A stretch of DNA of 64,000 bases, from contig CAXHJY010001576.1 of the NCBI GenBank assembly GCA_964016885.1, forward strand, positions 148,613 through 212,612. Reading direction: 5' to 3'. The translations under genes were made by a program, and so were the position numbers. Source of the stretch: Eledone cirrhosa. Its lineage: Eukaryota. How positions within the stretch are numbered: position 1 is the stretch's first letter; each line of letters begins with the position of its first letter. The notes beneath the pieces are model-generated. The model had not been told where the DNA came from and did not search any database. It saw only the letters and a program-made list of their open reading frames with translations. Shown piece after piece: positions 7,280-40,157 of the stretch.

Positions 7280-7662
7280 ATCAAAAGATGGTTAAAAGAG
7301 TTCCAAGTATTTTATTATGCGCATTTCAAAAACAAATCTCATCATGATATAGTGAAGTTTTAAATCAATATATGAAAAATAATTTGAGATTGATGTATGA
7401 TATTGGGAAAAAGTGAGGGTGGGGGGGTGGGGGGGGGGGGGAAAGGGTAAGAAAGAGGAGTTTTCCCAATATCATACATCAATCTTAAATTATTTTTCAT
7501 ATGTTGATTTAAAACTTCACTATTCACAATTGTTTTTTAACCTTCATATCATGTATCCCTATTTTATCTGATGAAAACGCAGATATCATCTCATGATGAT
7601 ATTTGTTTTTGAAATGCGCATAATAAAATACTTGGAACTCTTTTAACCATCTTTTGATCTTA
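7277..7662. mobile_element. Fold-back Penelope-like terminal remnant carrying a hammerhead
   Basis: 7277-7410 is the reverse complement of 7461-7662 with an internal deletion. G-rich spacer, TA flanks. A second copy lies at 62885-63200. Confidence 0.8.
7561..7629 (+). ncRNA. Type I hammerhead ribozyme
   Basis: ATTTTAT-CTGATGA-[AAACGCAGATATCATC tcat GATGATATTTGTTTTT]-GAAA-TGCGCA-TA-ATAAAAT: 7-bp stem I, intact core, palindromic stem III, AUA site. Confidence 0.88.
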
Positions 7663-26711: not shown

Positions 26712-27180
26712 AATTGTTTGAGTATGTAAGCGTTCTTTGGTTTCTTTTACATATATATATATATATCCAGGGAGTGTAACGTGGAGTTACTGTAGGTTCA
26801 CCCGGGTGAGCACTCGATGTTTAGGTTCACGTCAGTATCGAGGTGTAGAGCTAGACAGAGTGTAATATAATATATTCTGTTAGAACCTACAGAGGTCCGA
26901 CAAGCTTTTAATTCCAGAGTCAGGCCAGATCGATACAGATCGAACCTTGAGCTTATCAGTAGTGAAACGCGCGTCACCAACCAATAAGCGTAATGTAGGA
27001 GTAACCATTCGTCCTTGTATTATTGGATTGGCAGTATCGGTAGAGTTACGGCCCTTTATGGTGTGAGTTCAAATCCCGCCGAGGTTAACTTTGCCGTTCA
27101 TCCTTACGGAGTTGATAAAATAAAGTACCAGTAATACATTGAGATAATTGCTGGCCTTGTGTCAAAGTAGAAACAATTAT

Positions 27181-36710: not shown

Positions 36711-38728
36711 TAGAGATAATACATAATAAGCAAGGACCAGATATAGTTAATGTTAAGTGGGATAGCAGGAGTGGAAGAAGAAAACAATGTTTTATGATTC
36801 GTATATTTTTTAGAGGCTTTGATGAGGAACGATTTGTCTCTACATGTATTATGGAATAAGGTATGTAATAAATCAAAAAGATATATAATAGTTTCTACTT
36901 TTGGCACAAGACTAGCAAATTATCCAGTACATTACTGGTACTTTATTTTATCGACCCCGTAAGGATGAAAGGCAAAATTAACCTCGGCGGGATTTGAACT
37001 CATATCCTAAAGGGCCGTAACTCTGCTGCAAAGCATGGCGTCCGACCCTCTACCGATACTGGCAATCCACAGCCCCTCAAATAGATATATAATAACTTCA
37101 GTATTATATCAATAAATGGTTATAGAAACCGCGATACTATTGGTCTTTTATACTTCTAACGCAATACGATATACAGGGAAAAGCAAAGTAAAATCACACA
37201 AATTTCTAGTAGTAACGGTTTACAAGCACTGCACGTAATGATATACAACAATGTATAGTCATATATTCCAAAGATGTGTTAGTGCAGCTCATTGAATAAA
37301 TTAGTATTGTGCTACAAGAGTGTTTTAAATAATGATGCCTTCTTTATTGGTTCTTTCCTTAAGCAGTGTAATACGACAATATTTTGATAATTATAAAAAT
37401 AAATACTGTGATCACATTAAGACAGCTTGCTGTTGTGTCTTTCCTTAAGCGAAAATATTGTTTGCTTGTATTCTATTATTGTAAAGCTGTTTAACTATAA
37501 TGTCGTCTGAATTATGTCTTGTGAACTAGAAAGCTGTGGCCACCGGATATTTTGTTGCTTATTAATAATAAAAAAAAAAATCTGAAATTTGTCGCAAACT
37601 CTCCCCCAAGCAATTTATTCAGATGGATAATTAAATCTTTAGTTGAATAATGTAACCTTGTTGGCACTATATGGCAAAATTAAGACGCATTCCATTTCGT
37701 GATGCTTCAAGTAGTGAAAGCTGTTTGCTACACTAAATCCTGTCAGTTGCATTGGATCTTTCCTGTGTAAGTTCTCTACTACCTTATTAATTCCATATGT
37801 ACTTGTCACAGATTACATAGGTTCAATCACATATGTCAGATGCTGTTGAAGAGAATGCTTCGCTATGCTTTCTCACCAATTACTATGCTACAAGGTTTAA
37901 GATGTACTATTCATACTTCATACCGCCCCCAAAACCTCCGATCTGAGAGATCGCTCGCATGTTATGGCCACTACTTCTCTATAACAATAAAACCTAAAAC
38001 CCTATTTAGACTACCAGTCATCTGTTGAGCGTCTGTTGAGTTGTAGTAACTCTTATTTACTGTAAACTCGTAATCTAATAAATACTACTTTTATACTGCA
38101 CTAGTTTTAAGATTCTGCTGCATCAGTTATATGTTTCAATGAAGCCAGATTAAATTTTCAACTTATTCAACGAATGGATTTTCAACTTATTCAATGCATG
38201 GATTTCACTTCGATTTCACAAATCAGACGTATAAACGGTTTAAAATGTATTCCCAAGTGCATAAGTGAGTTTGATCTCTTAAGAATATTCAAAACATTAC
38301 TGGGTTGGGAGAAAGATATAAATTGTATCCCAAAATAAAAATGTCTATGTAGATGATGTAAGTTGTATGAATGTTGATAAGAAAATAAAGCACTGTATGT
38401 GGATAAAACCCTGTGAATTGACACCGCAAACAAGATTTGGATTTCGTTCAGAGCTCTTCCACTTACAGCGATGAATAGTCCTCTAAATCCTACCCATGAT
38501 ATTAACGAGTGAGTATTCCACTAACACGTGTATCTTTAGCGCAGTTATCCAAGATGTAGTAATGGTTAATTACTACACTGGATATGGTTGACGTACGGTA
38601 AGAGGTTACTCTACGAGTTATGGAAGAATTGTTCAAGAAACTTAGTTCCTGATCCTTCAGTATTCCGGAGTGTATATAAAGAATGAATAATAACAGGTAG
38701 ACATCATACAAAGGTAATTTATTCCGTG

Positions 38729-38840
38729 TGCTTACAAGTGTTTCCACGGTGGTACTGCAGCCTAGTTCCGCTACGTGCAAATTCACAAGTACTTGCAGAA
38801 CTCGAATATCCAATGCTGTGACCACTGTTTCCTCAGAGCA
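38729..38840 (-). ncRNA. Type I hammerhead ribozyme with 85-nt stem II insert
   Basis: TGCT-CTGAGGA-A-ACAGTGGT...ACCACCGT-G-GAAA-CACTTG-TA-AGCA. Confidence 0.75.
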
Positions 38841-39014
38841 GAATGGTAAATGTACAATGTAAAAACCCTTAAGTGGGGTTGTTGGGGAAGATAGAGTGGA
38901 ACAGGAAGAGAGAAAAGTAGGGAAGAGGGAGAGAGAAGGAAAGATATGCAGGGGTTGGAGAAGTAGGAGAGAGTGGCTTGTAGATATCTTAATCAAAATG
39001 TTATGGTAGGGGTT

Positions 39015-39126
39015 TTCTCTGAGGAAGCAGTGGTCACAGCATTGGATATTCGAGTTCTGCAAGTACTTGTGAATTTGCACGTAACGGAACTAGGCTGCAG
39101 TACCACCGTGGAAACACTTGTAAGCA
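39015..39126 (+). ncRNA. Type I hammerhead ribozyme with 85-nt stem II insert (opposite arm)
   Basis: TTCT-CTGAGGA(39019)-A-GCAGTGGT...ACCACCGT-G-GAAA(39111)-CACTTG-TA-AGCA. Confidence 0.7.
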
Positions 39127-39173
39127 CACGGAATATATTACCTTTTTATGATGTCTACCTGTTATTATTCATT

Positions 39174-39230
<57 letters not shown>

Positions 39231-39258
39231 TAGATAGATAGATAGATATACGTGATAT

Positions 39259-39625
39259 TAATATATAAGGGAACAAAGAATCAGTATTGCATCATATACA
39301 TCTTTAATTACATATTACATATGTTTCCCTGTCGATCAGCTCGAGGAACGATCTATTAATGATCGAACCTGACTCTGGAATCGGAAGTTCCTCAGATATA
39401 TTTTAACATGTAAACGCGATAAGCTTCCGATTGCAGAGTCAGATTCTATCATTAATAGATCGTTCCTCGAGATGATTGATCATGTAATATGTAATTAAAT
39501 ATGTATATGATGCAACACTGATTATTTGTTCCTTTATATATTAGTACTATTGATACTCTACTCGCCAAGAGTATTCATTTGGCATACCACCTATGGAGGC
39601 AATTAATTTGCACCTTAATACCTAT
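39259..39625. mobile_element. Fold-back Penelope-like remnant
   Basis: ~39259-39388 inverted relative to ~39422-39543, followed by a terminal segment TACTCTACTCGCCAAGAGTA. Confidence 0.75.
39310..39401 (-). ncRNA. Type I hammerhead ribozyme with 61-nt stem II insert
   Basis: ATATAT-CTGAGGA-A-CTT...CGATCattaataGATCG...AGG-GAAA-CATATG-TA-ATATGT: palindromic stem III ACATATGT, GUA site. Confidence 0.72.
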
Positions 39626-40010: not shown

Positions 40011-40046
<36 letters not shown>

Positions 40047-40157
40047 GGTATAGGATTACCCAAGATGTAGTACTGGTTAATTACTACACTGGATATGGTC
40101 TACCTGTTATTATTCATTCTTTATATATATATATATATATATATAATCTATTATATA

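Follow-up and report, generated by a model that had tools for sequence, protein, structure and literature searches.

The question raised by this locus was which kind of element carries hammerhead-like motifs with unusually long stem II inserts, and whether the inserts are a selected structure. The window, that is, the whole stretch of 64,000 nucleotides analysed from the genome of Eledone cirrhosa (3.0 Gb, microsatellite-rich), contained three CTGAGGA cores in the range indicated by an initial annotation, at 38836-38830 (-), 39019-39025 (+) and 39395-39389 (-). The gaps reported between CTGAGGA and GAAA were confirmed, 85 nt at 38836-38741 (-) and 39019-39114 (+) (family A) and 61 nt at 39395-39324 (-) (family B), and the basal helix, the CAGC/GCTG pairing and the CGATC-attaata-GATCG hairpin described within the inserts were all present. 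The initial annotation overlooked that both motifs are terminal repeats of Hydra-clade Penelope-like elements. The features of the locus are the following:

38545..39016, minus strand: 5'-truncated 3' end of a family A element, part of the pLTR plus a tail of ~128 nt (38672-38545), with 98% identity across 472 nt to full-length elements such as locus L074
38729..38840, minus strand: intact A hammerhead (descriptor, covariation), with stem I TGCT/AGCA, core 38836-38830, 85-nt stem II 38829-38745, GAAA 38744-38741, stem III CACTTG, UA 38734-38733 and the predicted cut between 38733 and 38732
38770..38803, minus strand: conserved internal loop of A, GAGU 38803-38800 opposite AGC 38772-38770, closing a variable apical hairpin (kept in 13 of 14 A-like rows)
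38718..38723, minus strand: AATAAA, likely polyadenylation signal, 10 nt behind the predicted A cut
39017..39182, plus strand: inverted, tail-less copy of the A pLTR end, with core and GUA 39120-39122, stem I 5' strand lost and an internal loop variant, AAC
39183..39255, no strand: (TA)n/(GATA)n array recognized from the sequence, end point of both insertions
39256..39420, minus strand: inverted, tail-less copy of the B pLTR with an intact hammerhead
39310..39401, minus strand: intact B hammerhead (descriptor, covariation), with stem I ATATAT/ATATGT, core 39395-39389, 61-nt stem II 39388-39328, GAAA 39327-39324, palindromic stem III CATATG, UA 39317-39316 and the predicted cut between 39316 and 39315
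39339..39375, minus strand: conserved internal loop of B, GAGU 39375-39372 opposite AGC 39341-39339 (kept in 12 of 16 B-like rows)
39424..39622, plus strand: tail-bearing B copy, 5'-truncated inside the ribozyme, 84% identical to the minus B copy

The order of the type I core (CUGANGA, GAAA, UH) was found in the minus-strand motifs of both families, and a type I descriptor that allowed a long stem II and required 4 bp of stem I accepted the minus 85-nt and minus 61-nt copies of the window, along with two 36-nt motifs located elsewhere, and rejected the plus 85-nt copy. A single 166-nt inverted repeat (98% identity) has the two 85-nt copies as its arms, and only the minus arm has stem I (TGCT/AGCA). 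The plus arm carries GGTTTTCT, derived from the inversion joint, in place of the stem I 5' strand and failed the 4-bp test. TGCT was kept in 64 of 66 distinct A copies examined, the plus copy of the window being one of the two exceptions. The initial annotation had stems I and III closing around a GUA site; this is correct for the minus A and B copies and does not hold for the plus A copy, to which GUA 39120-39122 belongs, and the relevant sites are thus 38733/38732 and 39316/39315. The plus B copy has no CTGAGGA and its GAAA region is deleted; its tail (~39547-39622) matches other B copies by eye. Families A and B adjoin because a single (TA)n array is the end point of both insertions.

Searches of the window against Rfam gave no hammerhead at the gathering score and none at E ≤ 10, as expected from the long insert and in agreement with the proposal that such ribozymes escape standard searches. 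Folding of single copies was unremarkable (spacer z = -0.94, -0.43 and -1.92 for the window copies), so that the evidence for structure is comparative.

The family A motifs are almost certainly type I hammerheads in Hydra pLTRs. A genome search with family A retrieved 1,426 first-look candidates, the 40 of them that were scored being 97–100% identical, and the family is young. Full-length copies encode a 775-aa ORF, free of stops in 24 of the 30 best ORF matches. Its protein has the motifs RWK37, DKT115, YRDD346 and VY..YYIG 655-671 (C-terminal GIY-YIG-like), together with CNCHLPERC 635 (CxCx5C), CRLC 733 (CxxC) and CNH 761 (CxH), without CCHH, and only one cysteine between the GIY and YIG positions. 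Sequence searches of Pfam and the PDB with this protein gave no useful match; its homologue P0055 matches Pfam GIY-YIG. The motif set and the (TA)n target fit the definition of the Hydra clade given in section 11 of PMC8557442, as far as that source was available, and assign family A to the Hydra-clade Penelope-like elements. At locus L068 two hammerheads flank the ORF 3,176 nt apart, giving a unit of 3.18 kb, and 250 nt separate the first predicted cut from the ATG that follows it. Copies of family A end ~56 nt behind the cut, or ~128 nt further when the tail is present, and are followed by (TA)n; the family combines a pLTR in partial tandem, an inverted copy, a one-sided tail and insertion into (TA)n. 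A Naiad assignment was ruled out by the C-terminal position of the endonuclease. Non-LTR retrozymes are non-coding tandem monomers of a few hundred nucleotides, each with a hammerhead, and were ruled out for A, which is autonomous with a 3.18-kb unit.

In 24 of the 41 long-stem families a polyadenylation-type AWTAAA follows the predicted cut at a distance of no more than 25 nt, against 3/41 upstream of the core and 0/41 at +31 to +55; it is likely a polyadenylation signal placed right behind the ribozyme. Such hexamers (AATAAA/ATTAAA) occur in the window at 38718-38723 and 39303-39308 (-). A genomic cleavage footprint was sought in family A: none of the 100 matches listed breaks at the predicted cut, and 19 break within 61 nt upstream, as judged by eye. 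This counts against an essential role, though religated RNA would show no trace of the cut.

The family B motif is very probably a type I hammerhead in a Hydra pLTR as well, an assignment that goes by homology to its sister family B2 (63-nt spacer, 76% identity to B). In 2 of 30 loci the B2 hammerhead is preceded by a Hydra-type endonuclease (CxCx5C, CxxC, CxH); of the other 29 loci, 24 contain a portion of this UTR, whose full length exceeds the flank fetched. The genome search with family B gave 3,538 first-look candidates, and the best whole-length non-self matches (91–95%) indicate an older family. Its anatomy in the 30 loci read is like that of A, with inverted pairs, a one-sided tail and (TA)n. 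The UTR, followed ~0.8 kb upstream, reached no ORF, and the cleavage-footprint test on genomic B copies was unreadable in AT-rich repeats. The Neptune-like ORF found close to some B copies (L037, L119) is part of other insertions, and a non-LTR retrozyme was rejected for B, the copies being dispersed or inverted and none tandem in the 30 loci read. First-look candidates, which are not copy numbers, amounted to 3,538 at the hammerhead and to 144 at 15–105 nt upstream. Many B copies start 20–40 nt before the core, which may reflect a transcription start or a short non-autonomous form. A SINE-like repeat is found at a common place in the B 3' UTR, in 1–4 tandem copies (L097, L099, L100, L103, L105, L122).

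Long stem II was shown to be a genome-wide trait here and, among the elements examined, is restricted to those of this genome. Blind genome samples totalling 400 kb gave 29 descriptor matches, compared with 0–1 in each of 10 shuffles and 0–3 for each of 8 decoy cores. Their spacers measured 8–24 nt in 15 matches, 25–44 nt in 11, 45–110 nt in two and more than 110 nt in one, a composite. A pattern with spacers of 70–100 nt matched the genome 13,516 times, against 73 for the reversed control; the count for 45–69 nt (20,492 vs. 1,132) was left unused, since 32 of the 100 rows listed were, by eye, LINE-type RT coding sequence. From the fetched loci 190 distinct copies in 41 families were obtained (spacers 41–101 nt), and a Hydra-type endonuclease was located upstream of hammerheads with spacers of 49, 63, 81–83, 85, 88–93, 95–98 and 101 nt. 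No hammerhead could be linked to several other Hydra families of this genome in the loci examined. A DNA search for the sister family with an 88-nt spacer gave no match; the pattern search located it. In metagenomic Hydra-like loci a sense hammerhead was present in 56 of 79, all with spacers of 10–29 nt, and the other 23 gave no match. Across the families of this genome spacer lengths grade continuously from 11 to 104 nt, which makes the "grafted" domain of the initial annotation doubtful.

Some variants were recorded in the same material. In a 93–96-nt family (L261, L260, L288, L358) the predicted stem II is a three-way junction with two hairpins in place of one long hairpin. A Hydra-like metagenomic locus (L366:2400) has a U3-A8 variant of the core (TTGAAAA) and an 11-nt stem II; this variant occurs with 75 nt at locus L182 of this genome, as one copy only. 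A hammerhead with an 18-nt spacer follows the end of a Neptune-like GIY-YIG ORF (L037:946, L146, L169, L172, L175), so that a short stem II is retained in this genome by at least one family outside the Hydra clade.

Comparison of genomic copies, proposed in the initial annotation as a check, supports a selected, paired extension. The descriptor used for the families placed no constraint on stem II, and nevertheless positions 2–7 from the core were paired in 188 of 246 cells over the 41 families (controls: 106 ± 7 with arms permuted, maximum 129 in 5000; 63–96 with arms slid). Spacers folded better than their own shuffles in 38 of 41 families (mean z -2.2). In MAFFT alignments 15 of 30 pairs changed on both sides in the A-like group (14 rows; score 0.338 vs. 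0.178) and 17 of 30 in the B-like group (16 rows; 0.329 vs. 0.175), helices deep in the extension included, and both scores lay above all 500 shuffles and all slid registers; the structures were taken from the window copies and relatedness was not corrected, so these figures are not probabilities. The model-fitted set of 38 B-like rows gave 23 of 30 pairs changing on both sides. Covariation thus supports stems I, II and III, the exceptions being the plus A copy (stem I) and the plus B copy (no core). By position, pairing over the 41 families was found in 17 at the first, 38 and 36 at positions 2 and 3, and 22 at the fourth (C.C in seven).

Column identity in the core was 0.99–1.0, partly owing to the selection of rows; in the A-like group the mean was 0.61 in the spacer and 0.62 in the flanks. 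RNAalifold recovered only the basal helix from the A-like rows, and an alternative helix that pairs with the core from the B-like rows. The hammerhead-competent fold lies 2.9 (A) and 4.4 kcal/mol (B) above the predicted minimum. Dimerization through the insert, suggested by the initial annotation, was not borne out: the apical palindrome GTACTTGT is present as described and is not conserved (12 of 37 distinct A copies, no sister family), and the self-complementary part is stem III, whose self-duplex is a perfect 8 bp in B (-7.0 kcal/mol) and imperfect, with two mismatches, in A (-1.1 kcal/mol). In other Penelope hammerheads the palindromic stem III is taken to imply cleavage as dimers (PMC4209133, in the part available), and pairing of two copies through stem III is likely here by analogy.

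Within the extension one internal loop stood out, with 5'-GA(G/A/U)U opposite 5'-A(G/A)(C/U) common to the A-like and B-like groups. The two families, taken as unrelated in the initial annotation, thus share this loop and belong to the same clade. Its predicted pairs are G-C, A.G or A.A, a bulged base and U-A. Of the 38 B-like rows, 33–38 kept the loop positions and 34–38 those of the catalytic core, a count biased by the choice of rows with a model trained on ~16 of them. The loop lies 12–14 nt from the core in B and 26–32 nt in A, the two being separated there by an additional helix that has an invariant bulged A, and in both groups AGC stays opposite GAGU in the hairpin at any apical length. 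An automated scan, which missed several B-like rows, detected the loop in 8 of 10 A-like families, 2 of 7 B-like families and, weakly, 1 of 24 other long-stem families; it is not universal among the long-stem families. A quick endonuclease tree of A- and B2-type families and metagenomic relatives recovered the A-like families as a clade (SH-aLRT 99) and joined B2 to a 49-nt family without the loop (97); A and B were not sisters. Common origin, exchange of 3' ends or convergence may explain the loop in both. The consensus of the bulged-G motif (loop E, sarcin-ricin) is AGUA opposite GAA; membership was rejected, as AGU(C/U) is found here opposite (G/U)AG, sometimes AA, and only a resemblance is left.

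A protein-binding or regulatory module in stem II, as first suggested, is plausible in view of this conserved loop. The reading that we favour, tentatively and on comparative sequence data, is that the conserved GAGU/AGC loop of a covarying stem II binds a protein that assists a weak ribozyme. Stem II has its distal end directed away from the active site, so that it could lengthen without hindrance. No canonical geometry for a loop I–loop II contact was seen, and at 12–32 nt from the core the loop would be too far for the usual contact with a stem I of 4–6 bp, which makes a protein site its likeliest role. The protein would most likely be the element's own RT-endonuclease, which when bound would help the hammerhead to fold and cut; the energy gap between the competent fold and the predicted minimum fits a need for help. 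Tandem transcripts would carry two hammerheads 3,176 nt apart; stem III would bring these together, and their cleavage at GUA would be weak and assisted by the protein. The start sites of reverse transcription would lie downstream of the ribozyme, at the pLTR end and the tail end, on uncut or religated RNA, and insertion into (TA)n would follow, with selection keeping stem II paired and the loop in place. The available text of PMC11167929 reports for Penelope of Anolis that the hammerhead cuts only with its protein, that hammerhead mutants transpose normally in vitro and that a template beginning at +20, beyond the point where stem II starts, retains activity; the last two results indicate that the RT does not need stem II as a handle in that element and count against the favoured reading. 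A stricter version, in which the loop, kept or re-evolved in two distant subclades, binds the element's own RT and gates cutting to the ribonucleoprotein, is improbable. If true, it would be a natural protein-gated hammerhead, built like engineered stem II aptazymes, with the loop present in thousands of copies.

The same loop could be an RNA-only tertiary module that docks on stem I, the A-rich 3' flank or the partner ribozyme and takes the place of the loop I–loop II contact, for which no canonical geometry was seen here. This is rather unlikely given the different loop–core distances in A and B and the short stem I, although natural hammerheads need a contact between stems I and II for speed, according to the portion of PMC3088659 available. 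The AWTAAA kept just behind stem I in 24 of 41 families would suit docking on the flank, but it is more simply a polyadenylation signal. An internal loop with A.G/A.A interchange presumably resembles the bulged-G (loop E) family, which would also count for a tertiary module. It is no more than doubtful that the end of stem II merely tolerates insertions, with long hairpins arriving by drift, pairing alone selected to keep the core undisturbed, and the loop as inherited baggage or coincidence. The spacer continuum, the absence of the loop from most long-stem groups and a spacer identity in A-like rows equal to that of the flanks would all be explained in this way; against it, the unpaired loop positions are kept nearly like the catalytic core among families 38–78% alike, and two long-branched subclades have the same seven letters in common.

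Two further explanations have very little credibility. The conserved letters might act as DNA in an internal pLTR promoter, with the hairpin secondary: promoters do lie in Penelope pLTRs (PMC6765202). The AGAGTCA of B is one letter from an AP-1-type site, which would count for a promoter, but A-like rows lack TCA, and AGC opposite GAGU at any apical length fits an RNA motif; such a role is very improbable. Scarcely any credence is given to the insert as an off-switch pairing with the CUGA core or as a dimerization arm working through the apical palindrome. The helix found by RNAalifold in the B-like rows pairs UCAGG with the core, and the A copy of the window is predicted to misfold similarly. 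Core–spacer duplexes, however, were no stronger than with shuffled spacers (mean z +0.21 in 41 families, +0.32 in 14 A-like, -0.43 in 16 B-like rows), which leaves the off-switch unsupported, and the restriction of the palindrome to some A copies speaks against a dimer arm.

The elements were compared with known systems from the available parts of the cited reports. They share with the Hydra clade of PMC8557442, whose set includes Hydra-1_Obim, the protein motifs, the (TA)n target, a type I hammerhead near the 3' end, tandem and inverted 5'-truncated copies, a one-sided tail and a short, near-palindromic stem III. In contrast, published Hydra spacers measure ~12–26 nt (File S2 of PMC8557442) against 61 and 85 nt with a conserved loop here, the A unit is 3.18 kb where published Hydra elements are generally under 3 kb, and the tails measure ~75–128 nt, compared with 30–40 in other PLEs (PMC8557442). 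Minimal metazoan PLE hammerheads (PMC4209133) are alike in their pLTR location, short helix I, palindromic helix III, opposite-strand pairs 100–700 bp apart and low expected activity; the helix II called "larger than usual" there is 6–8 bp, and here it is an irregular hairpin of 20–30 bp. Precedents for a long stem II are the spike-moss PLE-X1_sMoe and PLE-X1_sTam, with a spacer of ~50 nt flagged as deviating (PMC8557442). These are single examples from a distant, EN-minus plant group, and the table in File S2 gives for them no covariation, family series or conserved loop. PAc Poseidon of Anolis (PMC11167929) resembles the favoured reading in its protein-assisted hammerhead, and the elements in its internal RT start sites, which define the pLTR end and the tail, and in its AT-rich targets. 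It differs in its clade, in an ORF that starts in stem II, whereas the ATG of A lies 250 nt behind the cut, and in a hammerhead dispensable for insertion in vitro. The discontinuous Clec2 hammerhead (PMC6155905) also has a very large insertion in one helix; it is of type III, with the insertion in helix I, and belongs to a domesticated mRNA and not to a retroelement repeat.

Hydra-clade Penelope hammerheads are thus known, and what is new, as judged from the sequences compared, is a lineage-wide long stem II with an undescribed conserved loop. No paper on a stem II of 60–100 nt in Penelope hammerheads was found in the literature covered, most subscription papers being outside its scope. The role of the hammerhead in Penelope elements is treated as an open question in the available text of PMC8557442 and PMC11167929. 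Family A, young, with many intact ORFs and a large, mutable RNA module on its ribozyme, makes protein-assisted cleavage directly testable. Spacers of at least 25 nt were found in 14 of the 29 hammerhead-like matches of the blind samples, and descriptor and Rfam searches miss this class, so that hammerhead counts in such genomes are underestimates; elements called hammerhead-less may merit a second search. In addition, the stem II extensions, natural, covarying and present in dozens, provide a library of insertions tolerated at the site used for engineered switches.

Other hammerhead-related features were observed in the window. A third, decayed B-like hammerhead lies at 26882-26990 (+), with the core CCGACAA and stem III CGCGCG (72 bits with model R1); a SINE-like repeat and (TA)n come after it. 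At 40013-40127, within (TA)n, there is a short inverted pair of A ends without ribozyme, with a tail end at 40013-40099 and a 30-nt pLTR end at 40098-40127. Two hammerheads of a family with 36-nt spacers, common in this genome, occur at 7568 (+) and 62975 (-), with stem III TGCGCA and an 8-bp stem I.
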